Source: Patescibacteria group bacterium
Lineage (GTDB): Bacteria; Patescibacteriota; Gracilibacteria; UBA1369; PNNO01
NCBI GenBank assembly: GCA_018821175.1
Contig: JAHJMX010000089.1
Span: 1 to 30,007 of the forward strand
Direction: 5' to 3'
Length of the DNA: 30,007 nt
Part shown: positions 572 to 29,432 of the stretch, piece after piece
How the letters are laid out: each line of letters opens with the position of its first letter
Position numbering within the stretch: position 1 is the stretch's first letter
Program-made: the position numbers and the translations under genes
The notes under the pieces: model-generated
Databases searched by the model: none
Seen by the model: the letters and a program-made list of their open reading frames with translations, nothing else
Told to the model about the DNA's origin: nothing

Positions 572-716
572 TGGCTTGAATTGGTTTAGAATTTTATTTT
601 TTTTGTCATGATCATTTCATACTTCTTTTTTTTTGTCATGTTATCCTTCTAATCACTTGTCAATATCTGGTTTTTATAGTACTGTTCCGCACCAATGATT
701 ATAACACTTTTTCGTC

Positions 717-1381: not shown

Positions 1382-1420
1382 AACACCCTTTGTATAGTAT
1401 TAATATAACGATTTTTCGCA

Positions 1421-9085: not shown

Positions 9086-9110
9086 GTGTTGCCATAACAC
9101 TAACTTTTTT
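9085..9110 (+). terminator. Intrinsic terminator-like hairpin immediately before rny
   Basis: AGTGTT-GCCAT-AACACT then AACTTTTTT; rny ATG follows at 9113. Confidence 0.5.
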
Positions 9111-9112
9111 GT

Positions 9113-10639
9113 ATGGATAGCATGTTAATTTTACTGGCCTTAGTAGGGCTTGGAGCGGGAACGGTGGGTGGTTATTTTTATAGAAAAAATGTCGTTGAAT
9201 CGAAGAACAGAGATTTGAATGAAAAAAGTGCGCAATTACTTAAAGACGCACAAAACAAAGCTAAAGATCTTCTTTTTGAAGCCAAGAATAATTCTTTTAA
9301 ATTGCTTGATGAAGCAAAGAAAGATGAGCGCATGAAGCGTGAACAGCTTCATAAAATTGAACAAAGACTTGTTTCAAAGGAACAGATTCTTGAAAAAAAA
9401 TCTGAAGATGCAGATAAACTAAAAGAGGAACTTGAAAATAAAGTTACTTCTGTTAAACGTCTTCGTGAAGAGGTGCAAAAAATTCAAGAAATGCAAGAAG
9501 TGGAACTTGAGAAAGTTGCACAAATGTCTAAGGAAGACGCTAAAGCAATTCTTCTTAAAAAGGTTGAGGATGATACTAAAGAAGTTTTGGTTGAGCAGAT
9601 CAAGAAGACTGAAAAAGAGGTCAAAGATCAGGCTGCACAAAAAGCAAAATATATTATCGCTGAGGCGGTCCAAAAATATGCCGCTGAAACTACAGTTGAA
9701 TCTACAGCTACAATAGTAAGTCTTCCTTCTGATGATATGAAGGGACGTATTATTGGGCGTGAAGGTAGAAATATTAATACATTTGAAGAGATTACAGGTG
9801 TGGATGTGATTGTTGATGATACACCAGGATCAATTGTTATTTCCGGATTTGATCTAGTGCGTCGTTATGTCGCAAAAATTACACTTGAACGTTTGATTTC
9901 TGATGGACGTATTCATCCAGCTAGAATTGAAGAAACTTATGAAAAAGTTAAAGGTGAAGTTGGGCAACTTGTGAAAGAGCTTGGTGAAAAAGCTGCTTTT
10001 GATGTTGGTGTTGCTGGGCTTCATCCAAATCTTGTTAAACTTCTTGGACGGCTTAAATTTAGAGTTAGTCATGGGCAAAATGTTCTTAAGCATTCAATGG
10101 AAGTTGCATTTATAGCTGCTAATCTTGCTTCTGAGCTTGGAGCTGATGTGAATATTTGTAAACGTGCTGGATTGCTTCACGATATTGGTAAGGCAGTTGA
10201 TCATGAAGTGCAAGGAAATCATGCTGCGATTGGTCGTGATATTGCTAAGAAATTTGGGATTAGTCCTGCAGTGATTCATTGTATCGAGTCGCATAATGAT
10301 TACATTGAAGCTGATTCATTAGAAGCAATGATTGTTTCTGCGGCTAATGCAATTGCAAATTCTCGACCTGGTGCAAGTAAGGATAATTTAGATAATTATA
10401 TAAAACGTTTGGATGAGCTTGAAAATGTATGTTCAACATTTGAAGGAGTTGAAAAATCATTTGCAATTCAATCTGGAACTGAGGTGCGAGTATTCGTTAA
10501 TCCAACTAATGTAGATGATTTGGGTGCGGTTAAATTGTCGCATGAGATTACGCGTAAGATTGAACGTGACTTGCAGTATCCGGGCCAAATAAAGGTTAAT
10601 GTTATACGGGAAACGAGAGATGAAGCTTATGCAAAGTAA
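9113..10639 (+). CDS. rny: Ribonuclease Y
   Basis: N-terminal TM, coiled coil, KH domain (MKGRIIGREGRNI), HD domain (QNVLKHS...LLHDIGK), C-terminal YPGQIKVNVIRETR. Confidence 0.97.
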   Translation: MDSMLILLALVGLGAGTVGGYFYRKNVVESKNRDLNEKSAQLLKDAQNKAKDLLFEAKNNSFKLLDEAKKDERMKREQLHKIEQRLVSKEQILEKKSEDADKLKEELENKVTSVKRLREEVQKIQEMQEVELEKVAQMSKEDAKAILLKKVEDDTKEVLVEQIKKTEKEVKDQAAQKAKYIIAEAVQKYAAETTVESTATIVSLPSDDMKGRIIGREGRNINTFEEITGVDVIVDDTPGSIVISGFDLVRRYVAKITLERLISDGRIHPARIEETYEKVKGEVGQLVKELGEKAAFDVGVAGLHPNLVKLLGRLKFRVSHGQNVLKHSMEVAFIAANLASELGADVNICKRAGLLHDIGKAVDHEVQGNHAAIGRDIAKKFGISPAVIHCIESHNDYIEADSLEAMIVSAANAIANSRPGASKDNLDNYIKRLDELENVCSTFEGVEKSFAIQSGTEVRVFVNPTNVDDLGAVKLSHEITRKIERDLQYPGQIKVNVIRETRDEAYAK

Positions 10640-10653
10640 TTAGAAATTATTAG

Positions 10654-10681
10654 GAGAGGTTAATTTGTAACCTCTCTTTTT
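10654..10681 (+). terminator. Intrinsic terminator after rny
   Basis: GAGAGGTTA-ATTTG-TAACCTCTC perfect 9-bp stem followed by TTTTT. Confidence 0.8.
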
Positions 10682-10744
10682 AAAATACGTTATAAAAACC
10701 TGAATAAGATTAAAAAATAAATCTCAACCCCTTAACATTCTATT

Positions 10745-11812
10745 ATGAAAAAACTCCTATTGCTTGTAATGGCGTTTGGAATGTTTGCTGTAATTACACC
10801 CGCAGTTTTTGCAACAGATGTTTGCTCAGACACGCCAGAATCAAGTGCTGATTTTTACGTGGAAACTTCGCGTGCTTCTTGGCTCATGGGCCAATCATGT
10901 ACAGATTCTAATGTTGTCACTACTATGCCGCAAGGTTCGGTTATGCATGTAATTGGTATGACTGAGTATTGGCATAAGCTTGTTACTGAAGAGGGGCAAG
11001 TTGGATGGATGTGGGTTGATTTTGTACAGCCAACATCTAAGACTTTTAATCCTGTTAGTGCGGAGCCTGAACCAGTGGTTATTTCGGATCCAGTTGTTGA
11101 AGAACCAGTTGTGTATAGTCCAATGTATGATATCGCAGGATATAAATACGAAACAGCTGTTTGGTATGTATACAATCAAGGAATTGTACAAGGATATCCA
11201 GATGGGGCATATCAACCAGACAGAGTTATCAATCGTGCAGAGCTGTTGAAGATTATTATTGAGGCAGCCTATGATGATGAATTTGCATCATATGGGAATC
11301 AGAGTTGTTTCTCAGATGTTCCAGCAGGACAGTGGTATACGCCTTATATATGTTTTGCAAAACATGCAGGGATTGTACAGGGATATGGTGATGGAAGTTT
11401 CCAGCCAGCAGCAGAAATTAACTTTGTAGAAGCACTTAAAATGGCGCTAGTTGGATTTGGGCATGAATATACAGAAGGAGATCCATGGTACAAAGATATT
11501 GTGCAACTTGGAGGCAATGAAAGAGCGATTCCAATGGACATCAAATCATTTTCGGTAGCGTTCACCCGCGGACAAATGGCAGAGATGATTACTAAGATAA
11601 TGAAAGGGCAGGATGGAACTTTGGAAGAATATGTGAATAACTTAGTTTATTATAATTACAATGTTAATTATGGAACTATTGATGCTGGTATTGATATGGA
11701 AGATGCGTATAAAAATGGACAGTGTCTTTGGGACTTAACAGTTTATGATACTGGTGAATTTAATGATGCTGGAATGGAGTGTAAAAATGGAGACTGGTTG
11801 TTTATAGATTAA
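10745..11812 (+). CDS. Exported SH3b + S-layer homology (SLH) domain protein, paralogue 1
   Basis: Signal peptide; SH3b-like VVTTMPQGSVMHVIGMTEYWHKLVTEEGQVGWM; SLH repeats GIVQGYPDGAYQPDRVINRAE, FSDVPAGQWY, GYGDGSFQPAAEINFVEALKM. Confidence 0.85.
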   Translation: MKKLLLLVMAFGMFAVITPAVFATDVCSDTPESSADFYVETSRASWLMGQSCTDSNVVTTMPQGSVMHVIGMTEYWHKLVTEEGQVGWMWVDFVQPTSKTFNPVSAEPEPVVISDPVVEEPVVYSPMYDIAGYKYETAVWYVYNQGIVQGYPDGAYQPDRVINRAELLKIIIEAAYDDEFASYGNQSCFSDVPAGQWYTPYICFAKHAGIVQGYGDGSFQPAAEINFVEALKMALVGFGHEYTEGDPWYKDIVQLGGNERAIPMDIKSFSVAFTRGQMAEMITKIMKGQDGTLEEYVNNLVYYNYNVNYGTIDAGIDMEDAYKNGQCLWDLTVYDTGEFNDAGMECKNGDWLFID

Positions 11813-12578
11813 ATAATTTCAAACCCTTTAACTTTATAAGTATGAAAAAAACGCTTCTAGGAGTAGCGGTTGCAGCAATTATGTCTTCGATACTATTTGT
11901 ATCGGCGGCTTTTGCGACAGACATTTGTAGCAACACTCCACTATCAAGTGCAAATTTCAATGTAGAAACTACTTCTGCAGTTTATTTGCGCGACATTTCG
12001 TGTATGGATTCAAACATTACTGCAACTTTGCCAGCTGGAGAAGTTTTGCATGTAATTGGTCTGACTGAAGGATGGCACAAAATTGAACGTGCTGATGGTA
12101 GTACTGGATGGCTTTGGGAGACTTTTTTAACTTCTACTACAAAGCCTTTCAATGCAGTGGTAACAACTCCGGAACCAGTCGTGGTCCCAGTTGTGGAGGA
12201 GCCAACTTTGTATAGTCCGATGTACGATATTTCAGGATACAAGTATGAAAATGCAATTTGGTATGTATACAATCAAGGGATTGTTGGAGGATATCCAGAC
12301 GGATCATATCAAGCAAATAGAGTGATCAACCGTGCAGAGCTTTTAAAAATAATAGTTGAGGCAGCATATGATAATGAATTCGCGTCATATGGGAATTCGA
12401 GCTGTTTCTCAGACGTTCCAGCTGGGGAGTGGTATACACCTTATGTGTGTTTCGCAAAATCAGAAGGAATTGTACAAGGATATGCAGATGGGAGTTTTAA
12501 ACCAGCAGCAGAAATTAACTTTGTAGAAGCTTTGAAGATGGCGATGGTTGGATTTGGGCATGAATATACAGAAGGAGA
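11405..12578 (+). repeat. Near-identical DNA blocks shared by the tandem SLH paralogues
   Basis: 29-nt exact match 11405-11433 = 12502-12530; 32-nt exact match 11450-11481 = 12547-12578. Confidence 0.85.
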
Positions 12579-13293
12579 ACCATGGTACAAAAATATCGTT
12601 GAACTTGGAGGAGCAGAAAAAGCAATTCCAATCGACATCAAATCATTCTCAGTAGCCTTTACACGCGGGCAAATGGCAGAGATGATTACAAGAGTGATGA
12701 AAGGTAATGATGGCGTTTTGGAAGACTATCTTGGAGTTGAAGTATACAACAACTACACAGTTACATATGCAACTATTGATGCAGGAATTGATGTAGAAGA
12801 TTTAGTTGGAAGTGGGCAATGCGTTTCTTCTGCAGGGGTTGTTTACAACGATGGAGTTTCATTTGAAATGAGTGAATGTACAACTTGTATGTGTGCAGAC
12901 GGGAACTGGCTTTGTACAGGACTTTGTATGCCAGAGGAAGAGACAGTTATTTATACTAACGAAGAACAGGCATTTACTCTTGAACTTCCAGGGACGTGGG
13001 TTGATGTGGTTGCACAGCAATTGCCTGGGGACGAGATTTTTATTAAATCTTCAGTAGATGAGGATAGATATTTTGATATTATATTTTATGGACTTCAATA
13101 TGGGGATGCAATGATTCTCGATGAGGGGCAAGTTAGAACTGTACTGATTGGAGAAACTCCAGAATATGCAATTTTAATGAGAACCTTTGATTGTAAAAAT
13201 AGTATGCCGAGTTGTGCTGTTGAGGATGAAATTGATTCAACAATACAGGATGAGCTAGAAATGATTCTTGAAACGTTTACTTTGATTCAATAA
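11842..13293 (+). CDS. Exported SH3b + SLH domain protein, paralogue 2, with Cys-rich module and extra C-terminal domain
   Basis: Same SH3b/SLH architecture as 10745-11812, followed by C...YNDGVSF...CTTCMCADGNWLCTGLC and about 120 further residues. Confidence 0.85.
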   Translation: MKKTLLGVAVAAIMSSILFVSAAFATDICSNTPLSSANFNVETTSAVYLRDISCMDSNITATLPAGEVLHVIGLTEGWHKIERADGSTGWLWETFLTSTTKPFNAVVTTPEPVVVPVVEEPTLYSPMYDISGYKYENAIWYVYNQGIVGGYPDGSYQANRVINRAELLKIIVEAAYDNEFASYGNSSCFSDVPAGEWYTPYVCFAKSEGIVQGYADGSFKPAAEINFVEALKMAMVGFGHEYTEGEPWYKNIVELGGAEKAIPIDIKSFSVAFTRGQMAEMITRVMKGNDGVLEDYLGVEVYNNYTVTYATIDAGIDVEDLVGSGQCVSSAGVVYNDGVSFEMSECTTCMCADGNWLCTGLCMPEEETVIYTNEEQAFTLELPGTWVDVVAQQLPGDEIFIKSSVDEDRYFDIIFYGLQYGDAMILDEGQVRTVLIGETPEYAILMRTFDCKNSMPSCAVEDEIDSTIQDELEMILETFTLIQ

Positions 13294-13305
13294 ATTCATT
13301 TAAAC

Positions 13306-13333
13306 TTGACTAGAGGATTTAGCACTTTATAAT
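13306..13333 (+). promoter_or_regulatory. Sigma70 promoter of groESL
   Basis: TTGACT (13306-13311), 16-nt spacer, TATAAT (13328-13333). Confidence 0.75.
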
Positions 13334-13345
13334 ACTGAGTGCTAA
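13319..13345. promoter_or_regulatory. CIRCE element (HrcA operator)
   Basis: TTAGCACTT-N9-GAGTGCTAA against consensus TTAGCACTC-N9-GAGTGCTAA (one mismatch), directly upstream of groES. Confidence 0.92.
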
Positions 13346-13394
13346 ATCCTTTTTATTTACGTCTTAGCATTTTGTATCTTTAACTATTTTCAAT

Positions 13395-13694
13395 ATGGCA
13401 AAAATCATACCTGTATCAGATAATTTGGTTGTTGAAGCCCTTGAGGCCGAGAAAACTGCTTCTGGGATTATTATTCCTGATACTGCTTCAAAAGAAAAAC
13501 CTCAAAAGGGGAAAGTAATTGCTGCTGGTCCTGGAAAAGTTGGTGATGATAATGAACGTATTCCAATGGAGGTGAAAGAAGGGGATACTATACTTTTCAA
13601 ATTTCAAGAATGGGGCGCTACAAAAGTAAAAGTTGATGGTAAAGAACTTTTGGTTTTGAAAGCTGATGATGTGCTTGGAATTTTCCAAGATTAA
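13395..13694 (+). CDS. groES: Co-chaperonin GroES
   Basis: IIPVSDNLVVE...KTASGIIIPDTASKEKPQKGKVIAAGPGK...VKEGDTILF...DDVLGI. Confidence 0.98.
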   Translation: MAKIIPVSDNLVVEALEAEKTASGIIIPDTASKEKPQKGKVIAAGPGKVGDDNERIPMEVKEGDTILFKFQEWGATKVKVDGKELLVLKADDVLGIFQD

Positions 13695-13720
13695 TTCGTA
13701 CATAAAAATTCATACTTTAA

Positions 13721-15397
<1,677 letters not shown>

Positions 15398-15430
15398 AAA
15401 CTTTTCTTCTTAAAGTAATCAAAATCAATT

Positions 15431-15474
15431 AGCTTCTCGTTGGCAAAAAATTGCTTATGGGGAGCTTTTGTTTT
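15431..15474 (+). terminator. Intrinsic terminator after groEL
   Basis: AGCTTCTCGT (15431-15440) pairs with ATGGGGAGCT (15457-15466) using G-U pairs; inner GGCAA/TTGCT stem; then TTTGTTTT. Confidence 0.65.
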
Positions 15475-15507
15475 AGGATTCATTGTAGTGTTAAAAACGG
15501 AATTTTC

Positions 15508-15549
15508 AAAAACTTCTTTTGCATGTAATTATGTGAGAGAAGTTTTTTT
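15508..15549. terminator. Second hairpin downstream of groEL
   Basis: AAAAACTTCT (15508-15517) and AGAAGTTTTT (15538-15547) form a perfect 10-bp inverted repeat, extended inward by G-U pairs, with A/T tracts on both sides. Confidence 0.45.
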
Positions 15550-15578
15550 GTAAGAATATTTTATTCGTACATCTCTTA

Positions 15579-15587
15579 TGCTATAAT
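15579..15587 (+). promoter_or_regulatory. Extended -10 promoter (TGnTATAAT)
   Basis: TGCTATAAT 28 nt before ATG 15615; no convincing -35. Confidence 0.55.
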
Positions 15588-15614
15588 CTGCCGTAGAAAA
15601 TAATAATTCTAAGT

Positions 15615-16037
15615 ATGGTAAATCAAAAAAAATCTAAATTAATAGATGGGCCGAGGCGTGTTATGAAAATAATGAAAAATGCTATCACTTTGCAAGATGA
15701 TGATTTTGTGATTAATCAAATTGATGGGGATAAGGTTGATAATGATGAAGTTAATGTTGATAAAGGTTATTCACATGGAGCAATCGGGGTATCTCAAGTC
15801 CCGGAAGCTGCTGAAAAGGTTAAGGTTAGTTTTGGGAATTTCGCAAAGCTTGTTGCAAATAGGAATTTTGAAGACGTTATTGAAATGAATAAAGATGAAG
15901 ATGTGATTGTGAGCAGTAATTTACTTGCAGATTTAGCTAATTCTCATGAAAATGAAGGAGAACGCAGAATTCCAGCAGTTTTTGTTGTTGGAGTTTTAAT
16001 CGGGATTGTCATTACATACATTCTTTTAACTTATTAA
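15615..16037 (+). CDS. Hypothetical acidic protein with a single C-terminal TM helix
   Basis: 140-aa ORF with its own promoter; ends RRIPAVFVVGVLIGIVITYILLTY; 6 nt before pyrH. Confidence 0.7.
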   Translation: MVNQKKSKLIDGPRRVMKIMKNAITLQDDDFVINQIDGDKVDNDEVNVDKGYSHGAIGVSQVPEAAEKVKVSFGNFAKLVANRNFEDVIEMNKDEDVIVSSNLLADLANSHENEGERRIPAVFVVGVLIGIVITYILLTY

Positions 16038-16043
16038 TATACG

Positions 16044-16762
16044 ATGGATATGTCTTCTGAGATAAAATATAAGAGAGTCTTACTTAAGTTGTCCGGAGAA
16101 GTTTTAGCAGGGAAATATGAGTCTGGTATTGATGTGGAATATGTTGCTGAGCTTTGTGAAGAAATTGCAGAATTACATGAAATGGGAGTTCAAATCGCAT
16201 TAGTAGTTGGTGGAGGAAATATATGGAGATACAGAGATTTTAAAGATTCAGGAATTGAGAGAATCATGTCGGACAATATGGGTATGATGGCAACAGTTAT
16301 GAATGGATCAGCTTTAAAAGGAGCTTTTGAAAAACTAGGACTTGAATGTCGTGTTTCTTCTGCTCTCCATGTTCGCCAGGTTGCTGAGGATTATTTGCCA
16401 CCACGAGGACGTCATCATTTAGAGCAAAATAGAATAGTTGTTTGCGTTGGGGGGACAGGAAGTCCTTTCTTTACAACTGATTCTGCTGCTGCACTTCGTG
16501 CACTTGAGCTTAATTGTGATATCTTGTTAAAAGCGACAAAGGTTGATGGGGTTTACGATAGTGATCCTGAAACTGATCCAACAGCAAAAAAATATGATGA
16601 AATTTCTATACTGAAATGCTTGCAAAAGATTTAAGAGTAATGGATTTGACTGCGATTTCATTGTGTAAGGATGGGAATATGCCAATTCTTGTTTTCAATT
16701 TAAAGAAAGGAAATATGAAGAAGGCGATTTTTGGTGAAAAAATAGGAACTATTGTTTCATAA
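16044..16762 (+). pseudogene. pyrH: UMP kinase PyrH, frameshifted as sequenced (1-nt deletion near 16605-16608)
   Basis: RVLLKLSGE, VVGGGNIWR, GGTGSPFFTTDSAAALRALE, KATKVDGVYDSDP. Frame 0 stops at 16634; the canonical C-terminus [32 protein letters not shown]...GEKIGTIVS* continues in the -1 frame from 16607 to TAA 16760-16762. May be a sequencing error. Confidence 0.9.
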
Positions 16763-16791
16763 ATTTTTAATTTAATAAAATAATCAATAAT

Positions 16792-17352
16792 ATGCCTACA
16801 TCGAAGTATCATCAAGCCGCGAAGGTTGAGTTTGCTAAAGCAATTGATCATTTGGAATTCGGATATTCTAAATTGCAAATGGGACGTGCTAATGCTGGTT
16901 TAGTTGAAGATGTAAAAGTTGAATCTTATGGTGTGCAACAACCACTGAAAGCAGTTGCATCTGTTTCTTGTCCAGATTCACGAACAATTCAAATCCAACC
17001 ATGGGATCGTTCGAATTTAAGTTCAATTGAAGTTGCAATTCAGATGTCAGGACTTAATTTGACTCCAATTAATGATGGGATTTGTGTAAGACTTAATATT
17101 CCACCTTTGACAGAAGAAAGAAGAAAAGATTTAACAAAAGTTGTGCACAAATTAGAGGAAGAGGCTCGCATTGCTGTTCGCAATGCTCGCCAAATTGCTC
17201 ATGATGGCCTTAAAAAATTGTTTAGTGACAAAGAAATAAGTGAAGATGATTTTCATGGATCAAGCAAGAAACTACAAGATGATGTTGATAGTGTGAATAG
17301 AGAGATTGAATCTTTGTCTAAGGCAAAAGATAAAGATATTATGACTGTATAA
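16792..17352 (+). CDS. frr: Ribosome recycling factor
   Basis: LQMGRANAGLVEDVKVESYG, IQIQPWD, LNLTPINDG, RLNIPPLTEERRKDLTK, RIAVRNAR. Confidence 0.97.
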   Translation: MPTSKYHQAAKVEFAKAIDHLEFGYSKLQMGRANAGLVEDVKVESYGVQQPLKAVASVSCPDSRTIQIQPWDRSNLSSIEVAIQMSGLNLTPINDGICVRLNIPPLTEERRKDLTKVVHKLEEEARIAVRNARQIAHDGLKKLFSDKEISEDDFHGSSKKLQDDVDSVNREIESLSKAKDKDIMTV

Positions 17353-17364
17353 TAATTCATTAAA

Positions 17365-19044: not shown

Positions 19045-19151
19045 AATGTTTTCTATAAAAGAACTTGCCAACAAAAAAAAGATAGTTTCTAAAGTGATTG
19101 CGCTCTCTTTTTAAATATTTTATAAAATCGGGTGCTACACCATATGTGGTG

Positions 19152-19177
19152 TGTTGATAAGGCGTGATTAATCCACA
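19152..19177. promoter_or_regulatory. Two DnaA-box-like 9-mers upstream of dnaA
   Basis: TGTTGATAA (19152-19160; reverse complement TTATCAACA) and TAATCCACA (19169-19177), each one mismatch from TTATCCACA, in opposite orientation. Confidence 0.45.
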
Positions 19178-19236
19178 TTTAGGATCAAAAAAGTTGAACG
19201 ATATGAACTTGATTTTTACTTTCTGCAAGGATTAGT

Positions 19237-20709
19237 ATGTGGTCCCAATCTCGAGGGAAACCTATTTATTTGAAAGATTATATGTCCAACAAAGATCTCT
19301 GGCAGAATATTTTGAGGCGACTTAAGCCCACAATGAAATTGCCAGTGTTTAAAACTTGGTTTGCAGACACCGCTGTATTGCGGAAAGAGGAGAAGTCAAT
19401 TGTTATTGGACTTCCTACGCCGTTTGCGAAGAAATGGGTTAGTGATAGATATAGAATAAAAATATTACAAGCAGCTCAAGAAGAAGATCCGACAATTGAA
19501 ATTATTGAATATGAAGTGCATTCTGCTTTGTCAAATCCAGGTTCAACTGAGAAAGTTCATTTGGAATCTTTGCTTGATGAAGAAGATGAGAAAAAAGTAC
19601 GTAAAGTTCGGGGGAAAGAAGAACTTCATATTGGCAATGGCGTTACAAGCAAAAGGCTTGGTATTCAATATACATTGGATAATTTTGTTGTTGGAAAAGA
19701 CAATAGGTTGGCTCATGCAGCTTGTATGGCGGCAGCTAATATGCCTGGAGGGATTTACAACCCATTGTATATTTTTTCTGGAGTTGGACTTGGGAAAACA
19801 CATCTTCTTCAATCTTTGGGCAAAGAAATATTGAATAATGATCCAAGTGCACGTGTTGTTTACATGACAGCTGAGCAATTTACTAATGAGATTATTGATG
19901 CAATTGGGAAAAGACGGACCAAGGAGTTTAAAAATAAATATCGTAATGTAGATTGTTTCATTTTGGATGATATTCAATTCCTTGAAAATAAGGATATGAG
20001 CCAAATGGAATTTTTCCACACATTTAATGATTTGTATGATCAAAATAAGCAAATCGTATTAAGTAGCGATAGTCCGCCAAGGGATCTTGATGGCTTTAAA
20101 GAAAGGCTTAGAGGACGATTTGGAATGGGAACTGTTGTGGAAATTTTGCCACCTGATTATGAAACAAGATTCGCGATTTTGCGCCAACGAGCTCAAGATT
20201 TACAGATTATAATTGATCCAGCAGTACTTGAATTTATTGCATTCCATATTGAAACAAATGTACGTGATTTGATTGGAGTTTTGATGCAAACAGTTTCACA
20301 ATCTGCTTTGAATAATATGTCGCCAAATGTTGCTCTTGTTACAGAAATTCTGGAACAACAACACAAGATCCATGTTATTCATAGCGAACAATCGGCAATT
20401 GGAGGACGCTTTGAAAGCAACATAAGAACAATGCAACAAATTATCGATAGAGTTGCTCTTTATTTCAGTATTTCAAAAGATGAGTTGATTGGACCTGATC
20501 GTAAAAAGGAAATTAAGGATGCAAGACAAGTTTGTATTTATCTGATTCGTGATGAACTTTCACAATCTTATGATAAAATTGGTCAAACTTTAGGAGGGCG
20601 TAATCATACAACTGTTTTGCATGCATACAACGTTATCAAAACAAGGCTTAAAACTGATTTCAGGCTAATGCGCGACATCAATGCTCTCAAGAAAGAAATG
20701 GGTCTTTAG
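19237..20709 (+). CDS. dnaA: Chromosomal replication initiator DnaA
   Basis: YTLDNFVVG, YNPLYIFSGVGLGKTHLL (Walker A), LDDIQF (Walker B), EFFHTFN, domain IV ARQVCIYL...GGRNHTTVLHA. ATG 19282 (MSNKDLW) is a plausible alternative start. Confidence 0.98.
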   Translation: MWSQSRGKPIYLKDYMSNKDLWQNILRRLKPTMKLPVFKTWFADTAVLRKEEKSIVIGLPTPFAKKWVSDRYRIKILQAAQEEDPTIEIIEYEVHSALSNPGSTEKVHLESLLDEEDEKKVRKVRGKEELHIGNGVTSKRLGIQYTLDNFVVGKDNRLAHAACMAAANMPGGIYNPLYIFSGVGLGKTHLLQSLGKEILNNDPSARVVYMTAEQFTNEIIDAIGKRRTKEFKNKYRNVDCFILDDIQFLENKDMSQMEFFHTFNDLYDQNKQIVLSSDSPPRDLDGFKERLRGRFGMGTVVEILPPDYETRFAILRQRAQDLQIIIDPAVLEFIAFHIETNVRDLIGVLMQTVSQSALNNMSPNVALVTEILEQQHKIHVIHSEQSAIGGRFESNIRTMQQIIDRVALYFSISKDELIGPDRKKEIKDARQVCIYLIRDELSQSYDKIGQTLGGRNHTTVLHAYNVIKTRLKTDFRLMRDINALKKEMGL

Positions 20710-20829
20710 ATTGCGCAAATTTTGTGATCAAAATAACGAGAAACAACTTTACTTTTGTCGTCCTGGTTCATATACTACGTGTGTTCTAAGATTTAAGGAC
20801 ATTCTCTTTTTGTTATTAAAATAAAACAT

Positions 20830-22515
20830 ATGCCTCGAATACCAAGAAAAAGACCTATCGATTATATTCTTCCATTTTTGATCATGATTTGTACCGGAGT
20901 AATTGTTGTACTTGGATATCAACTTTATTCGAGCCTTCAAGGCCCTGAAGAAAAAGAAGATATTTATATGTATTTAGCTAATGGTAGTGCAAAAATTTTA
21001 CCTTGGGGATCAGGTGAATGGGAAAGGGCTTATTCTGGGACTAGATTGTTTCAAGGAGATTCAATTAAAACTCCACAAGGGGGGCGAATTGTTGTTGAAC
21101 TTTTTGAAGATCATTATATAAGAATGGATGAAAGAACTGAGCTTAGTATTAGTGAGATTAAGGCGAGTGGCGATGGATATGAAGTTGAGATTAATCTTCA
21201 AGATGGGAAAATTTGGATAAATAGTGATGAAACTTCAGACTCTCCAGTTAGGTTTAATGTGAGAACAAAGCATACTTCGATTCAAACAGTTGCTACAGTT
21301 TATGAAGTTGAGCAAAATATTGATAGCGAAGTGATTCGTGTTATGGAAGGAGAAGTTTTGGCAGATATTTTTGTTGATGAAGGGGAGGATCAAAGAAAAG
21401 TTGAGAGTATTTCAATTGGAGTTGGGCAAGAATCTGTTATCACTGATCAAGATTTACAAGATTATGCTGACATGAAGAACCCTTCTGTGATTAATGCTAT
21501 TGCTGATGAGTTTAAGGAAAGTTTCTTTTATAAATGGAATTATGCTGAGGATAAATTGCCTACAGATTATAGTTTGAAAGGTGGCGGAGATTTCAATGAG
21601 GCTTTGATTGAAGGAGGGGCGACTGAAGATCCAGAGCAAGTTGTTACAGAAGAGGCAGGGGAAAGCGATTTGCCTTGTCCAATCATTACAACACCATCTA
21701 CGAATGTATTTACAACCCCAGAATCTTCACTCACTTTACGTGGGACAACTTCTGAAATGACAAAGCAAATGATGGTTGATGTAACAAGTGGAAGTAATAC
21801 ACAGACTTATGAACTTAATTTGTATGTTACCGGAGGTTCTCAATGGAGTTTTGCGATTTCTGCAGCTGGTGGGAATATGAAAGCTGGAACAAATATATAT
21901 AAATTTTATGCAATTGATGAGAATGATTTAAAGAGTGCGACTGCAACTGTAACTGTTGTTTATGAAAGCGATGGAAGTGTTGTGCTTGATGAAGATGCGG
22001 TGGATCCTGAAGAGGAAGTGATAGATGAGGAGACTGAAGAAGTAGGAGACTTGGGAGACTTTGTAGCTCCTAAAGTTTTGACTTACAATGGGGGAGAATC
22101 AAATGAGTTTGATGTTGATGGCGTGAGTGTTTCTGGAAGCGTTGCTGGGGCTGAAAAAGTTTTGGTAAATGGTTATCAACTTACAGCTTTTAAGCCAGGG
22201 GATACTAAGTGGACTTTCTATGCAAAAGAATCACTTGGGAATTTGAGTGATGGAGAAAATACATATAATGTTGTAGCTTATGCCCCAGATGGAAGTACGA
22301 AATCTGTTGAGGCTATAATTATTTACGATCAACCTGAACCAGAGGAAGAAGAAGTTCCTGCAGAAGAGCCAGTAGCTGACGAAAGTGAGCCTGCTGTGGA
22401 CGAAACTCCTGCAGATGACACTACTGCCGCAACTGCACCTAAACCACTTTTAGACACAACTGTACCATCGACACCAGCGCCTGGAGAACCTGATGCTTCA
22501 GATCCTGCAGCGTAA
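20830..22515 (+). CDS. Membrane-anchored FecR-domain protein with Ig-like repeats and acidic Pro/Ala-rich tail
   Basis: TM near residues 12-34; LFQGDSIKTPQGGRIVVEL...IRMDERTELSI...LQDGKIWIN...VRTKHTSIQTVATVYEV (FecR-like); two Ig-like units ending GTNIYKFYAID and GENTYNVVAYA. Confidence 0.72.
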   Translation: MPRIPRKRPIDYILPFLIMICTGVIVVLGYQLYSSLQGPEEKEDIYMYLANGSAKILPWGSGEWERAYSGTRLFQGDSIKTPQGGRIVVELFEDHYIRMDERTELSISEIKASGDGYEVEINLQDGKIWINSDETSDSPVRFNVRTKHTSIQTVATVYEVEQNIDSEVIRVMEGEVLADIFVDEGEDQRKVESISIGVGQESVITDQDLQDYADMKNPSVINAIADEFKESFFYKWNYAEDKLPTDYSLKGGGDFNEALIEGGATEDPEQVVTEEAGESDLPCPIITTPSTNVFTTPESSLTLRGTTSEMTKQMMVDVTSGSNTQTYELNLYVTGGSQWSFAISAAGGNMKAGTNIYKFYAIDENDLKSATATVTVVYESDGSVVLDEDAVDPEEEVIDEETEEVGDLGDFVAPKVLTYNGGESNEFDVDGVSVSGSVAGAEKVLVNGYQLTAFKPGDTKWTFYAKESLGNLSDGENTYNVVAYAPDGSTKSVEAIIIYDQPEPEEEEVPAEEPVADESEPAVDETPADDTTAATAPKPLLDTTVPSTPAPGEPDASDPAA

Positions 22516-22534
22516 AAGATTGCTGTGTAAAAGA

Positions 22535-23545
22535 TTATAAATAAGTGGCTTTATTTTGGTTGTGTTCATCGTTATTGCGAGCATATTTTACTTCGCCAGT
22601 ATCGAGAGTTGTTAAGTAGAACCAATAGTCGCTTTCGACTGGATTTAATGTGCCTTCAATGTGTTCGATATCTGGATTTGAAATTGGGCCAGGAGGCATT
22701 CCAACAAATTTCCGTGTATTGTAAGGGGAATCTATTTCTAAATCTTGATATGTAATGTCCTTATTCTTTGTAACGTAAATAATCGTTGCATCCGCTCCAA
22801 TATGCCAACCTTCATCTAGACGTTTCCATAAAATTCCGGAAATTAATCCATAATCTTCTGGTGTTCTTACTTCCATTTGTAAAATTGAAGCCATTGTTAT
22901 GATTTCTTGTAATGTTCGATCTTGTGATTTAAATGTATCTCGAACAGTTTCAAATTTATGGTCAAAATTATCGAGCATTTTTGTTATCAAAACAGATGAA
23001 TCGAAATTTACTCCATCAACAAAATATGTGTCCGGATAAAGATATCCTTCGAGAGCGAACTCCACATCTCCGATTTCTTCGCGGTTTAAAAACCAGTAAG
23101 AATCGTAACCAGAGAAAGCTCTTGCTGCAGCCTCAAAATCACCATCAGGGGCAAGGTCCATATTTACAAGCTTATCATCTATCTGGCTTATTGTTAGGCC
23201 CTCTTGAATTGTAATTGAAACTTCCGAAGAGACTGGATTTTTAAAACCTTCGATAATTTCAGGGACATTCATTGATTTGCTAAGATTATAATTCCCAGCT
23301 TCAATATTTTTAGAAGCTCCAGTTACGCGTATATACAAATAAAAAATATCCTCATTTTTTATTAAATCATGTTTTTTTAAAGTTTTTGCAATATCTTTTG
23401 CTGTATCTCCACGATTAACGGTTGTCATTATTTGGCTAGTATCACCTGCATCAACTGCGGCCCAAATGTTATTATAAGTATAAAATAAAGCTATAATAAT
23501 CAAAACAAGTGCAGCAAAAAAGACTTTCTTCAAAAATGATTTCAT
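22535..23545 (-). CDS. mltG: Endolytic transglycosylase MltG (YceG)
   Basis: N-terminal TM, IEAGNYNL, VSITIQEG, LEGYLYPDTY, MASILQME, SPYNTRKFVGMPPGPISNP, YWFYL, HNQNK. Confidence 0.93.
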   Translation of the reverse strand: MKSFLKKVFFAALVLIIIALFYTYNNIWAAVDAGDTSQIMTTVNRGDTAKDIAKTLKKHDLIKNEDIFYLYIRVTGASKNIEAGNYNLSKSMNVPEIIEGFKNPVSSEVSITIQEGLTISQIDDKLVNMDLAPDGDFEAAARAFSGYDSYWFLNREEIGDVEFALEGYLYPDTYFVDGVNFDSSVLITKMLDNFDHKFETVRDTFKSQDRTLQEIITMASILQMEVRTPEDYGLISGILWKRLDEGWHIGADATIIYVTKNKDITYQDLEIDSPYNTRKFVGMPPGPISNPDIEHIEGTLNPVESDYWFYLTTLDTGEVKYARNNDEHNQNKATYL

Positions 23546-23569
23546 TAATAAATGAGTTAAATTTGTAAT

Positions 23570-23866
23570 TTATTGTAAACCAGGCATTTTATCAAGTCCC
23601 ATTCCTCCCATTACGTCTTTCATTTCTTCAGCGCCAATTTGTTGAGATCTTTTAATCGCTTTATTCAAAGCCTTAACAAGATTTGCTTCAGCTTTATTTT
23701 TATTCGCATATGCCTCGTCTGAAAACGTGATATTGATAACTTCCTGTTGTCCATCAATAGTTACTGTGACTCCTTCAACTTCAGCTTCTACATGTGTGTT
23801 TTGAAGTTTTTGTTTAATCTTTTTAGCTTGTTTCTGTAATTGATATAGATCTTTCATTTGATTCAT
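23570..23866 (-). CDS. ybaB: YbaB/EbfC family nucleoid-associated protein
   Basis: LQKQAKKIKQKL...VEAEVEGVTVTIDGQQEVINI...LVKALNKAIKRSQ...MGGMG, 98 aa. Confidence 0.85.
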   Translation of the reverse strand: MNQMKDLYQLQKQAKKIKQKLQNTHVEAEVEGVTVTIDGQQEVINITFSDEAYANKNKAEANLVKALNKAIKRSQQIGAEEMKDVMGGMGLDKMPGLQ

Positions 23867-24054
23867 TCCTATGATTTTTAAATAATTTATTTTGCGCTAT
23901 TGATACGCGACAAATATGATACCTGTGGGGGCAAGAATAGTAAAGTAATCTTAGGTAAAATACATGCAAATTGACTTGCGTTTTGCTCTTATTTTAGATA
24001 AACTCTTGCACGCTTGAACGAAATAAATTCAAATAAATTAAAACCTGAAAAGTT

Positions 24055-24699
24055 ATGAGTACATTAGCATTAGAGGTGCAAACAAGAACAAATGATAATT
24101 CTGGAGAAGTTAGAAGAGGAGGGCTTATCCCTGCCGCTTTTTATGGCCCAGGAAAAACGAATCAAAGTTTTGTAATGGATTATCAGACTTTTAGAAAAAC
24201 TTACGAAAAAGCTGGAGGAAATACTGTACTTGAACTTGATATTGATGGTAAATCTAAAGAATTTGTCTTGGTTCATGATGTACAATATGATCCAATTACA
24301 GATCGTTTCATTCATGTTGATTTCTTGCACATAGATATGAATAAAGAAACTAATGCAGAAGTTCCATTAGTATTCGTTGGTGAATCTAAGGCAATACGTG
24401 ATGAAGCTGGTATTCTTATGGTCAATCGTGACGTACTTGAGGTTAGATGTTTGGCTAAGAGCATTCCACATGAAATCGAAGTTGATATTTCATCTCTAGT
24501 TGATTTCAACCATTCAATTCATATTAGAGACATTAAACTTCCAGAAGGTGTTGAGGCTGTTGATGATATTGATTTAACAATCGCAACAGTATCTGCTCCT
24601 CGTGAAGAAAAAGAAGAAGCTCCTGTTGAGGCAGTTGCTGCTGAAGGGGCTGTTGTTGAAGGAGACGCTGCTAAAGCTGGGGAAGCAAAATCTGAGTAA
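24055..24699 (+). CDS. rplY: 50S ribosomal protein L25 (long Ctc-type form)
   Basis: RRGGLIPAAFYG, VHDVQYDPITDRFIHVDF, AEVPLVFVGES, IPHEIEVDISSL, IHIRDIKLPEGV, acidic Ala-rich tail. Confidence 0.95.
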   Translation: MSTLALEVQTRTNDNSGEVRRGGLIPAAFYGPGKTNQSFVMDYQTFRKTYEKAGGNTVLELDIDGKSKEFVLVHDVQYDPITDRFIHVDFLHIDMNKETNAEVPLVFVGESKAIRDEAGILMVNRDVLEVRCLAKSIPHEIEVDISSLVDFNHSIHIRDIKLPEGVEAVDDIDLTIATVSAPREEKEEAPVEAVAAEGAVVEGDAAKAGEAKSE

Positions 24700-24725
24700 T
24701 CTGGAAAATAAACTTACATATCATT

Positions 24726-25886
24726 ATGGAAAACGAAGAATTGTCTAATATTTCTCCGAATCCGGACCCTGGTAAAGATGATGAGAACCAAGGGGAGGAT
24801 TTAAGTGGGGAATTCTGGAGCAAGAATCGTATTTTGTTAGCCGTACTTGGTGTTTTATTGGTTGTTGGGATTGTATTCATTGTTTTAATTTGGATGAATG
24901 CTTTCAAGTTGCCTGAACAAAAGGCAATTCATGAGAAAATCCCTGCTCCGGATGAAGAGGTAAAAGAAGAAGAGAAAGTTCTCCATGTTTCACTTATTGA
25001 TGGAGATCAAATTGAAGTTGAAGAAGAGAGAATGATTGCAGTTATTATAGAAAATCATAGTGATTCACGGCCACAAATGGAGGGGCTTGCTGATGCTAGT
25101 TTGGTTTTTGAAACTGAAGCTGAGGGTGGGATTACAAGATTTTTAGCATTTTATCCATATCAGACTATAGAACGAGTTGGCCCTGTGCGATCAGCGCGTC
25201 CTTATTTTGTTAAGTGGGCAGAGCAGTTTGATGCTGGATTTGCGCATGCTGGTGGAAGTGATGCTGGACTTGCTGAAATTTATAACAGTGGGCAATTGCT
25301 TGATTTGGATGGGCTTGTCCTTGAAGGTGGAGATAAATATTTTGTGAGAGATTACAATTATTATGCTCCACATAATTTATTTACAAATTTGGCTGAATTG
25401 CGTGAAAGAATGGATGATTTAGGCTGGGACAAAGCGCTAAAATATCCATTTGCGACTTTTGGTGAGATGAGAGATTCAGCTTATGAAGAAGTCGTTTCGG
25501 CGAATACAATTCATATTTATTATCCGTTCCCACAATATTTTGTGAGATACGATTATGATCCATATACTGATACATACTTGAGATATCAGGCTGGGTTTGC
25601 CCATAATGATCATGGATCAGGTGAGCAAATTGCACCTTCGAATGTGATTGTTATGACTACAAATTATTATCCTATTGATGACGCTGGGCGCCTACAAATG
25701 CAAACTGAAGGGGAAGGGGATATGTATTTTTTCCGTAATGGAAAGGTTTATACTGGGACATGGCAGAAATCATCATCCCTTGGTGGTCTGAAATTCTATG
25801 ATGAAAACGATGAAGAATTTCTGTTTGAAGTTGGGAAAACATGGATTTCAGTCATTAATTATCAAGGCGGACTTCAGTGGGAGTAG
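24726..25886 (+). CDS. DUF3048 (YerB-like) membrane-anchored protein
   Basis: N-terminal TM; IAVIIENHSDSRPQMEGLADASLVFETEAEGGITRFLA, VGPVRSARPY, AHAGGS, YAPHNLF, GKTWISVI. Confidence 0.85.
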   Translation: MENEELSNISPNPDPGKDDENQGEDLSGEFWSKNRILLAVLGVLLVVGIVFIVLIWMNAFKLPEQKAIHEKIPAPDEEVKEEEKVLHVSLIDGDQIEVEEERMIAVIIENHSDSRPQMEGLADASLVFETEAEGGITRFLAFYPYQTIERVGPVRSARPYFVKWAEQFDAGFAHAGGSDAGLAEIYNSGQLLDLDGLVLEGGDKYFVRDYNYYAPHNLFTNLAELRERMDDLGWDKALKYPFATFGEMRDSAYEEVVSANTIHIYYPFPQYFVRYDYDPYTDTYLRYQAGFAHNDHGSGEQIAPSNVIVMTTNYYPIDDAGRLQMQTEGEGDMYFFRNGKVYTGTWQKSSSLGGLKFYDENDEEFLFEVGKTWISVINYQGGLQWE

Positions 25887-25903
25887 TAACTGCAATAAAC
25901 AAT

Positions 25904-25938
25904 AAAAAAATCCCCACACATTTCTTAGCGGGGATTTT
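25904..25938. terminator. Bidirectional terminator between convergent genes
   Basis: AAAATCCCC (25907-25915) and GGGGATTTT (25930-25938) inverted repeat with A/T tracts. Confidence 0.65.
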
Positions 25939-25968
25939 CTAGTTTGGTCTGTTTCCACTTTCGATCTA

Positions 25969-26253
25969 TTAATTAACTAGATCTTCTAGGAGATTTCGCA
26001 TTTCTTGAAATTTGGTTTCTTTCTCTTCTTGCTGTCTGATCATTGCTTGTCGTTCTTCATTTAATGCGAAGTTTAAATTGAGCGATATTATATCGCCAAT
26101 TTGGATCCCGTCTGGCAATTCATTTATTGGCCATTGAATAATATTCCCTTCTCCTTCGATGCCATTCTCGACTTCAAAATGCGCATATCCACCATCAATT
26201 TTCTTGAGTGTAGCGTTTAGTTTTCCTAGTTTGTTTGTGTGATTTTCGTTCAT
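25969..26253 (-). CDS. DUF3006-like small protein
   Basis: KIDGGYAHFE...IQWPINELPDGIQIGDII... followed by a C-terminal helix ending LLEDL, resembling the DUF3006 pattern from memory. Confidence 0.55.
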   Translation of the reverse strand: MNENHTNKLGKLNATLKKIDGGYAHFEVENGIEGEGNIIQWPINELPDGIQIGDIISLNLNFALNEERQAMIRQQEEKETKFQEMRNLLEDLVN

Positions 26254-26299
26254 TTCAACGGAATTTTATTCATTAATTTATAAACTTTTAGGTGCGAGC

Positions 26300-28381
26300 T
26301 TACCCCCAAATTACCAATCCTGCAATCAAAGGTGCAATAATTAATGCAATTGTGTTGATAACTTTTATCAACGCGTTTAAAGCAGGCCCAGCAGTGTCTT
26401 TGTATGGATCTCCAACAGTGTCTCCGACTACAGCAGCTTTGTGAGCTTCAGATCCTTTTCCACCAAAATGTCCATCTTCAATATATTTTTTTGCATTGTC
26501 CCAAGCTCCTCCACCTGTACACATATTAAGAGCCATTAAGAATCCAACTACGATAACTCCAGCTAGTAATCCTCCAAGAGCTAGAGGCCCTAGGAATACA
26601 CCAACTAAGATTGGAGAAACTACAGCCAAGATACCAGGGAAGACCATTTCGCGAAGTGCAGCTTTTGTAACGATATCTACGCATTGTTTGTAATCTGGTT
26701 GTGCTTTTCCGCTCATGATTCCTTTAATTTCTTTGAATTGTCTTCTTACTTCAACTACTACGGCATGAGCAGCTTTCCCAACTGATCCCATCAAAGATGA
26801 TGCGAATAAGAATGGCAAAAGTCCTCCGATAAATAATCCGATTAATACTCTGTAATCAGCAATGCTGAATACAAATTCGTGATTACTGTTTTTTGCTAAC
26901 TCCTCAGTGTAAGCCTGGAAGAGAACAAGTGCAGCTAATGCGGCACTACTAATTGCATAACCTTTTGTTACTGCCTTTGTTGTATTTCCAACTGCATCAA
27001 GTGCATCTGTATTTTTTCTAACTTTTTCTGGAAGGCCAGCCATTTCAGCTATTCCACCAGCGTTATCTGTTATTGGACCATAAGAATCAGTTGCGATTAC
27101 AAGTCCGGTAGTTGAAAGCATAGCTACAGCTGCGATTGCAATTCCGTAAATACCATTTCCAGCAGACGAAGCTTCTCCGAAGAAATACGCAATGATAATT
27201 CCAGTAACGATTAAAATTACTGGCAAGAATGTGCTTTCAAGTCCAACTGCAATACCAGCGATAACATTAGTTCCAGCACCAGTTTCGCAAGATTTTGCGA
27301 TTTTTTTAACAGGGCTATATTTAGTTGAAGTGTAATATTCAGTAATAAGAGTGATGAATACAGTGATTGCAAGTCCTACAAGGGTTGCATAGAAAAGGTT
27401 AATATCTCCAATCATGTATTGTGTAACGAAATAGAATCCAATAGCAGAAAGGACTCCAGTAACGATCATTCCTCTATATAGAGCTCCCATGATATTTGTT
27501 TTTCCTTCTCCAAGGTGCACAAACCAAGTTCCAACAATTGAAGTTAGAACAGCGACAGCTCCAAGAGCTAATGGATATTCAATCCCAGCAATTGCAAGTG
27601 TGTCAGTAAGAGTTGAAGCAGCTAAGATCATTGCGGCAATCAAAGTTACTGCATAAGTTTCAAAAAGGTCAGCTCCCATTCCAGCACAATCTCCAACATT
27701 ATCTCCAACGTTGTCAGCGATTACAGCTGGGTTTCGAGGATCATCTTCAGGGATACCTTTCTCCACTTTACCAACTATATCAGCTCCAACGTCAGCAGCT
27801 TTTGTATAAATACCACCTCCAACACGGGCGAAAAGTGAAACTAAAGAAGCTCCAAATGCGAATCCGATAAGTAGATTTGGTGCATCAGCAGAAGGAATAT
27901 TTAGTAAGTGTATGAATACGAAATAAAATCCAGAGACACCCAAAAGAGCAAGTCCAACTACAGCAAGTCCTGTAACTGCTCCTCCACGGAATGCAACAGC
28001 AAGGGCTTTTTGAAGACTTGTTTCTGCAGCGTGTGTAGTTCTAACATTTGCACGAACTGAAACATTCATTCCAATATATCCTGCAAGTGTTGAGAATATA
28101 GCTCCAACGAAAAAACCAACTGCTATAAGTAAGTTGTTGTTATAATCTCCTTTTGGAATTGTGTATGCAAGGACTAGGAAAATTAGAATTGTGAAGAACA
28201 GAACTGTAATTGTTTGCCTGTTCAAGTAAGCAGACGCTCCTTCTTGTATAGCTTTAGCGATTGCTTGCATCTTTTGTGATCCGCTTTCTTTTGAGAGTAC
28301 GTGGATGATAAGTCCAACAGCGTAAATTAACGCAACTAAACTCACGAGGATTGCGATCGTAGATACTTGGAAGAAATCCAT
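26300..28381 (-). CDS. hppA: Membrane-bound H+-translocating pyrophosphatase, K+-independent signature
   Basis: [96 protein letters not shown]. Confidence 0.96.
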
Positions 28382-28571
28382 ACGAATAAAGTTAATGATA
28401 TATAAATTAAGACGTGCAACATATTAGCTTGAATAAGACGAAAAACCAACCTTTTTTAGGAATAAAGATTTGCATTAAATAGCGATTTGTTGAGCAATTT
28501 ATAAGAACATATTCACAATGTCCAATTTTTCCATTAGAATGCTCCTTGGTCTACTATTTAACAATTGAAAT

Positions 28572-29423: not shown

Positions 29424-29432
29424 TGCTATAAT
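29424..29432 (+). promoter_or_regulatory. Extended -10 promoter (TGnTATAAT)
   Basis: TGCTATAAT, identical to 15579-15587, about 30 nt before ATG 29463. Confidence 0.55.

Follow-up and report, generated by a model that had tools for sequence, protein, structure and literature searches.

A UUAAC-type motif upstream of start codons as a probable signal for Shine-Dalgarno-free translation initiation in a class of Patescibacteria

How do ribosomes find start codons in a genome whose genes largely lack Shine-Dalgarno (SD) sites? The question is raised by a 30,007-nt stretch of DNA from an ultra-small Patescibacteria group bacterium (contig JAHJMX010000089.1 of assembly GCA_018821175.1, C129 in our numbering; the whole stretch is hereafter the window), in which the word TAAC recurs a short distance upstream of ATG codons. 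The source genome comprises 1.07 Mb on 141 contigs, with 35.8% GC and an estimated completeness of 94%. Gene calling gave 816 open reading frames (ORFs) with a minimum of 80 codons, each started at the first ATG that follows the preceding stop, and overlaps were removed greedily; the genome-wide upstream counts rest on 809 called genes. TAAC starting at −16 to −12 was found before 146 of these 809 genes, against a background of ~3/809 per position. Specifically, it occurred 19, 36, 41, 34, and 16 times at −16, −15, −14, −13, and −12, respectively, and 0 to 8 times at any other position between −40 and −1. The original prediction, made from the window, had called for a genome-wide check for such a positional peak, and the check was positive. 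The UUAAC-type motif to which this word belongs is probably an mRNA element and most likely the main upstream signal for ribosome recruitment and start choice without SD pairing, a translational role that we infer from computation.

Within the window, TAAC had been reported at −12 to −15 before nine of 26 starts. All nine positions were reproduced exactly, as were further copies at −17 (gene 16044), −19 (gene 5965, minus strand), and −23 (gene 8772, minus strand). Since the background of ~3/809 predicts ~0.5 hits in 26 five-position windows, nine is far above chance. When the 45 nt upstream of each gene were inspected, TAA at −18 to −10 was seen before 22 of the 26. The mapped copies are as follows:

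702..705, + strand: TAAC at −15 of the gene starting at 717 (sequence inspection)
1406..1409, + strand: TAAC at −15 of the gene starting at 1421 (sequence inspection)
9101..9104, + strand: TAAC at −12 of rny (start 9113), with a second TAAC at −18 (9095-9098)
10732..10736, + strand: TTAAC, its TAAC at −12 of an SLH-domain gene (start 10745)
11828..11832, + strand: TTAAC, its TAAC at −13 of the gene starting at 11842, within a 29-nt same-strand gap (the upstream gene ends at 11812)
13380..13384, + strand: TTAAC in the groES leader, its TAAC at −14 of ATG 13395
13733..13737, + strand: TTAAA, a looser variant, in the 56-nt spacer between groES and groEL, at −18 relative to the groEL start (13751)
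16026..16030, + strand: TTAAC, its TAAC at −17 of gene 16044; the gap is 6 nt, so the word lies inside the upstream coding sequence
23556..23560, − strand: TTAAC, its TAAC at −14 of the gene starting at 23545
28391..28395, − strand: TTAAC, its TAAC at −13 of hppA (start 28381)
28558..28562, + strand: TTAAC, its TAAC at −13 of the gene starting at 28572

Although the TAAC peak is real, naming TAAC as the motif was too narrow, as this word is only one variant of a wider UUAA(C/A/U). Genome-wide, TAA at −17 to −11 precedes 60% of genes, and expectation-maximisation motif discovery returned WWTTAA[ACT] in ~80% of genes, with TTAA starting at −17 to −13 and G almost excluded. At the motif position versus a control window, we counted 97 vs 4 occurrences of TTAAC, 111 vs 23 of TTAAA, 76 vs 14 of TTAAT, and 14 vs 6 of TTAAG, i.e., a 24-fold enrichment for TTAAC compared with ~5-fold for TTAAA and TTAAT. 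The reverse complement GTTAA yielded only 19 vs 8, so the signal is strand-specific. Base preferences extend to both flanks: T precedes TAA at a frequency of 0.56 in start-proximal copies vs 0.31 in copies further upstream, and C follows it at 0.31 vs 0.08 elsewhere upstream, a fourfold difference. The frequency of A reaches 0.44 to 0.49 at −13 to −10, and at the modal spacing the AA of the motif falls at −13/−12. TAAC is the sharpest and most diagnostic variant of a broader, strand-specific (A/U)UUAA(C/A/U) element from which G is excluded.

SD sites, by comparison, are lacking in the source genome: the purine-rich GGAGG-type word is not present 5 to 10 nt before most starts. The SD 4-mers GGAG, GAGG, and AGGA occurred at −15 to −7 in 4% of genes vs 5% in the control window, with no positional peak, and an SD-like match of at least 5 nt was found in only 15 of the 809 genes, in agreement with the near-absence of SD sites noted for the window. 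As a positive control, the same scan gave 51-62% in two other Patescibacteria genomes. Judged by their N-terminal sequences alone, the 15 genes with SD-like words are mostly hypothetical or secreted-looking, and they lie on small contigs; recent acquisition or contamination during binning may explain them.

The motif discriminates start codons from other ATG triplets. TAAC at −16 to −12 precedes 17.9% of first ATGs vs 0.75% of 4,265 deep in-frame ATGs, a 24-fold difference. Starts were called crudely as the first ATG: where that ATG lacks the motif, ATGs shortly downstream have it four times as often as deep ATGs do, so some called starts are wrong and the 60% usage is a lower bound. Within coding sequence, TTAA[ACT] is mildly depleted (observed/shuffled 0.80-0.91 under synonymous shuffling) and TTAAG is not; this test is weak, given that GGAGG (0.77) and AGGAG (0.73) behave likewise and codon-pair bias confounds it.

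The TAAC peak shows no 3-base periodicity, so it does not arise from in-frame stop codons. A related explanation, to which we give a very slim chance, is that the word serves some other RNA-level purpose, either as an endonuclease processing or stability site or in stop-linked termination-reinitiation, with UAA placed ahead of the start. The motif does fill intercistronic spacers, and all 38 internal genes whose upstream stop lies at −17 to −11 have TAA in that window; as 74% of stops genome-wide are TAA, stop and motif are sometimes the same triplet. However, the 174 remaining internal genes, with the upstream stop elsewhere, have TAA at −17 to −11 in 65% of cases vs 18% in the control. The similar counts at −15, −14, and −13 (36, 41, and 34) reveal no frame preference relative to the ATG, and the motif is as common where no ORF precedes the gene, at operon-first and divergent genes. 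Moreover, intergenic gap lengths show no peak that would put stops at −14, and it is the start codon, rather than the preceding stop, that sets where the motif lies. Upstream stop codons do not account for the motif.

Could the word instead be the −10 box of leaderless or near-leaderless mRNAs, with TAACnT read as TAnnnT? A TAA 12 to 16 nt before the ATG does lie near the position expected of a leaderless −10 box, and genomes of the leaderless GeneMarkS-2 group C likewise lack SD sites and carry a TA-led word ~10-15 nt before the ATG. The distribution among genes is different here. TTAAC in the −20 to −11 bin was equally frequent at operon-first (29 of 229) and internal genes (31 of 214). Genes that overlap an upstream same-strand gene, or start no more than 10 nt from it, have TTAA at −17 to −13 in 28-33% of cases (control 2-4%); the figure is 38-44% for gaps of 11-100 nt and 25% for divergent genes. 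Even where the gap is ≤7 nt and the motif falls inside the upstream coding sequence, TTAA was present in 27 of 83 cases vs 5 of 83 in the control. In the S10-spc-alpha ribosomal-protein operon (contig C15), the 22-36-nt spacers mostly contain TTAA or TAAC.

Promoter-like words, in contrast, have a place of their own. The 229 operon-first genes display peaks of TTGAC at −70 to −51, TATAAT at −50 to −31, and TGnTAnnnT at −60 to −31, none of which is seen in the 214 internal genes, and TATAAT falls at −20 to −1 in just four of the 229. The sixth position of the would-be TAnnnT hexamer is A (0.47) more often than T (0.34), i.e., the final T is not conserved. In composite −35/−10 matches, the −10 hexamer mostly lies at −45 to −36 before the ATG, so the predicted 5′ leaders are short and rather uniform (~25-30 nt). 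Given the motif in internal genes, the missing final T, the separate upstream promoters, and the layout of groES (below), we rejected the leaderless −10-box reading for the source genome and regard it as extremely unlikely. The original prediction had preferred a translation-initiation element, and that preference was upheld: a word that is start-locked, equal in internal genes, downstream of promoters, strand-specific, and 24-fold selective for starts points to a function in translation. The distance between motif and start codon is short and fixed, and the promoter peaks and the groES promoter suggest that the mRNAs carrying the motif have leaders.

At groES, a separate upstream promoter had been proposed to coexist with the motif, and this arrangement was recovered: TTGACT-16-TATAAT with a CIRCE-type repeat, followed by TTAAC. 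The promoter is the best sigma-70-type match in the region, and the repeat, which we take from the CIRCE consensus to be a CIRCE/HrcA-type operator, overlaps its −10 box, so that the groES transcript is predicted to be leadered. The leader would span ~55 nt, with TTAAC at −15 and TAAC at −14, ~40 nt downstream of the predicted transcription start. In groES orthologues from five relatives, the promoter, the CIRCE element, and TTAA(C) at −14/−15 are kept, whereas the surrounding leader sequence differs. The near-consensus promoter with its overlapping operator is itself an arrangement kept in orthologues across the class. Promoter features in the window are as follows:

13306..13333, + strand: groES promoter, TTGACT-16 nt-TATAAT, sigma-70-type match 11/12
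13319..13345, + strand: CIRCE-type inverted repeat TTAGCACTT-N9-GAGTGCTAA, overlapping the −10 box and seen in orthologues
15582..15587, + strand: TATAAT, 33 nt upstream of ATG 15615, with leader TAA at −14 and −11 (read from the sequence)
28512..28540, + strand: promoter-like TTCACA-17-TAGAAT, ending 31 nt before ATG 28572, which implies a ~25-nt leader
29427..29432, + strand: TATAAT after TGc (extended −10), 36 nt upstream of ATG 29463 (read from the sequence)

How far does the motif extend beyond this genome? The GroEL of the window shares 83% identity with its counterparts in two 'Patescibacteria group' genomes and 63-72% with those in Gracilibacteria, Peribacteria, and Peregrinibacteria metagenome-assembled genomes. 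We sampled 40-160 kb from each of four same-family genomes, six same-order genomes, 12 other genomes of the class (three of them TGA-recoded), and 10 genomes from other Patescibacteria classes. With 40-80 genes per relative, de novo discovery was too noisy in AT-rich DNA to give a clean consensus; the relatives were tested with fixed words by position, comparing −16 to −12 with a control window shifted upstream by 30 nt. TAAC was found 63 vs 7 times in the family (396 genes), 54 vs 6 times in other families of the order (338 genes), and 42 vs 4 times in class members using code 11 (556 genes), an enrichment of 9- to 10-fold in family, order, and class. TGA-recoded members (155 genes) gave 12 vs 2. 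In comparison, the other Patescibacteria classes (462 genes) gave 13 vs 6 with no peak. SD 4-mers were at or below control throughout the class and stood at 118 vs 35 in the other classes. The trait thus extends through the family and the order to most of the class, TGA-recoded lineages among them, and is not seen in the other Patescibacteria classes sampled, in keeping with the lineage-specific element that had been proposed. Because the class includes lineages with in-frame TGA in rplB, the clade corresponds to Gracilibacteria/Absconditabacteria/Peregrinibacteria; in the source genome itself, TGA is a stop and terminates 76 of 831 called genes.

If the motif is read on the ribosome, what reads it? 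The source genome has no assembled 16S gene, and the 16S rRNAs of relatives were used in its place. The original prediction had suggested inspecting the 16S 3′ end for loss of CCUCC or for a GUUA complement of the motif, and neither is found in same-family relatives. CCUCC is kept in eight same-family genomes, whose 3′ tails CACCUCCUUUCU read GGAUCACCUCCUUUCU or GGACCACCUCCUUUCU, and no GUUA(A) occurs near the 3′ end or at any lineage-specific position. These results bear on a further rival, which we consider quite improbable: that UUAAC pairs with an exposed GUUAA-like 16S segment, or with another ribosome-bound RNA, as a replacement anti-SD. Pairing would account for a sequence-specific preference that includes the C, and, judging by the geometry of E. 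coli UAAGGAGG, the motif occupies the place at which the 16S 3′ end would bind the 5′ portion of an extended SD. However, the tails contain no GUUAA; GUUAA words elsewhere in the relatives' 16S are either shared with SD-using outgroups or not conserved, and some are presumably present in E. coli 16S too; and the UUAAA and UUAAU variants would pair unequally.

Elsewhere in the class, the anti-SD core is degenerate, reading CCUCU (G030, G055) or UCUCC (G084, G071, G059), which fits relaxed constraint. These cores fit a published survey, in which SR1/Absconditabacteria and Ca. Peribacter riflensis (three clade genomes) are listed as SD-scarce and without CCUCC, with 2-7% of genes bearing SD sites (PMC10783764). 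That listing thus concerns the same broad clade, with CCUCC degenerate in some members; unlike the present case, no replacement motif was found named in its passages searched for one, and CCUCC is retained in the family of the window. A proposed check of bS1 and bS21 content showed a four-domain bS1 of 405 aa (contig C137, L116:1414-2631), while bS21 (PF01165) was not found in the 94%-complete source genome. Among other genomes, bS21 was found in 23 of 60 sampled from the class vs 41 of 48 from other classes, a patchiness that agrees with a previous report (PMC9297842).

Among the closest known systems is that of Bacteroidetes. GeneMarkS-2 group B, the genomes with non-SD ribosome-binding sites, is defined by the same motif occurring before first and internal operon genes (PMC6028130), and Bacteroidetes carry an A-rich element at −11 to −14 (PMC6028130, PMC6847099, PMC7797042). 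In F. johnsoniae, adenines at −12/−13 raise translation efficiency and are enriched in well-translated genes, and the mRNA stretch at −12/−13 is thought to adjoin bS1 (PMC6847099). As in Bacteroidetes, SD sites are absent here though CCUCC is kept in the 16S (in same-family relatives), one upstream motif serves both first and internal operon genes, and the motif lies 9-12 nt from the start, with adenines at −12/−13, predicted short leaders, and bS1 as the suspected reader. The Bacteroidetes element is an A-run, whereas here the consensus UUAA(C/A/U) is flanked by U and favours C, and the phylum is a different one, Patescibacteria, of the candidate phyla radiation (CPR), class Gracilibacteria in the wide sense. 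Furthermore, bS21, which helps to hide the anti-SD in Bacteroidia, was not found here and is patchy in the class, so SD-blindness, if it exists here, must work otherwise than by the bS21/bS18/bS6 sequestration of Bacteroidia. SD-bearing rpsU autoregulation was not seen either, and prfB has no frameshift site.

A second comparison is with the epsilon enhancer of T7 gene 10, UUAACUUUA, for which the 16S-pairing model is unsupported and bS1 is now favoured (PMC8748333, PMC9590205). Like epsilon, which raises initiation, the motif is A/U-rich, lies upstream of the start, and would promote initiation, and the two have the 5-mer UUAAC in common, whereas epsilon acts together with an SD and from further upstream and no SD is present here. 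The epsilon 9-mer occurred exactly before three starts in the source genome, and 24 vs 4 times with at most one mismatch, the bases after UUAAC being generic A/U; the relatives' 16S contain no h17-type complement. We therefore rejected identity with epsilon beyond the common 5-mer. In the full-text literature, which mostly leaves out subscription journals, we found no paper naming a UUAAC-type signal in CPR or showing its class-wide spread. SD-free initiation with an upstream non-SD motif is known already, and the UUAAC-type signal is most likely a lineage-specific version of Bacteroidetes-type SD-free initiation.

Several points weigh against the motif as the main initiation signal. Its information content is low, ~4-5 bits, and TAA is missing from its usual position at ~40% of called starts, in part as a result of the crude first-ATG calling. 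The motif correlates with ribosomal-protein-like codon usage (Spearman rho 0.25), but composition and false ORFs confound this link. The sample per relative is small and related genomes are not independent samples, so p-values on the pooled counts are only descriptive. Searches of public sequencing runs for the source DNA returned DNA metagenomes and unrelated RNA, with no transcriptome among them, and no complement of the motif that could explain its recognition was found in the relatives' 16S. Finally, one class member with 60% GC (G084) shows no TAA signal; TTCCC/TCCCC is enriched there at about −14 to −9, with G depleted and no SD. The conserved feature may therefore be a G-free unstructured tract and not UUAAC itself. 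The TTCCC/TCCCC word (loci L208-L227) resembles the anti-SD itself, not its complement.

A rival explanation, which we think unlikely, is that the motif is a passive by-product of selection for G-poor, A/U-rich, unstructured leaders, perhaps through anti-SD avoidance, with UUAA(C) as the commonest resulting word. In its favour, G falls to 0.08-0.10 over −20 to −1 from ~0.17 further upstream, the motif is weak and degenerate, the GC-rich class member has a C-rich, G-poor motif instead, and indirect sensing via structure or RNA dynamics has been proposed for the upstream adenines of F. johnsoniae and E. coli (PMC6847099). Against it, the peak is sharp, five positions wide, unlike a broad A/U-rich tract; C after TAA and T before it are preferred; and TTAAC is far more enriched than TTAAA and TTAAT. 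The depletion of TTAA[ACT] but not TTAAG in coding sequence also mirrors the motif, within the weakness of that test. In relatives at 43-52% GC, moreover, TAAC persists at 13-26% with controls of 0% (6% in G013), so composition alone is no explanation.

We return to the UUAAC-type motif as a signal for ribosome recruitment and start choice. It would act in 5′ leaders and intercistronic spacers, placing two adenines at about −13/−12 from the start codon. By analogy with the Bacteroidetes A-rich element and the T7 gene 10 enhancer, reading would probably proceed without 16S base pairing, with the 30S platform or bS1 as the likely reader, and G-poor, unstructured leaders may add to the effect. 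Protein- or platform-mediated recognition of an unpaired UUAAC-like tract is the mechanism that we favour, rated well below the general claim of an initiation signal. A bolder version, which we put forward tentatively and rather doubt, is that UUAAC is a dedicated signal replacing the SD across Gracilibacteria/Absconditabacteria/Peregrinibacteria, read sequence-specifically by a component peculiar to bS21-poor CPR ribosomes (four-domain bS1 or an rRNA segment), with a C-rich version in GC-rich members. If such a dedicated sequence-specific reader exists, bacteria would have, besides the known one, another natural non-SD initiation code with a mechanism of its own.

An initiation signal of this kind would imply that SD-independent initiation with a defined upstream signal arose outside Bacteroidetes, and the placement of adenines at −12/−13 as in Flavobacterium hints, by analogy, at a common ancient 30S-platform contact. 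Ribosomes that mostly lack bS21 while the family keeps CCUCC bear on why the anti-SD is retained and how starts are chosen without SD sites. In practical terms, gene finders that assume SD sites would misplace starts in these genomes, a UUAAC spacing model would improve annotation across this whole CPR class, including TGA-recoded lineages, and the motif offers a design rule for gene expression in these uncultured organisms and for the expression of their genes elsewhere.

Further observations concern genes of the translation machinery. The bS1 gene has no TAA or TTAA at −17 to −11, its nearest TTAA lying at −28, which recalls the unusual, autoregulated leader of E. coli rpsA. The prfB gene (RF2) is split over two contig ends (C8:7129-8004 and C27:6-176; L205, L207). 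We considered a prfB frameshift as the reason for CCUCC retention and rejected it, as the prfB ORF is continuous, with no CTTTGA +1 site and no internal SD. Likewise, a 16S 3′-flank hairpin, CUCCUU-UCU-AAGGAG, was rejected as the cause of SD disuse, since it is also present in the SD-using outgroup G142. Among the 16S 3′ ends of class members with degenerate cores (G030, G055, G084, G071, and G059; loci L081 and L201-L204), the downstream complementary word in G030 and G055 co-changes with the core (…CCTCT…AGAG), which suggests a conserved anti-SD/3′-flank hairpin in the 16S precursor.

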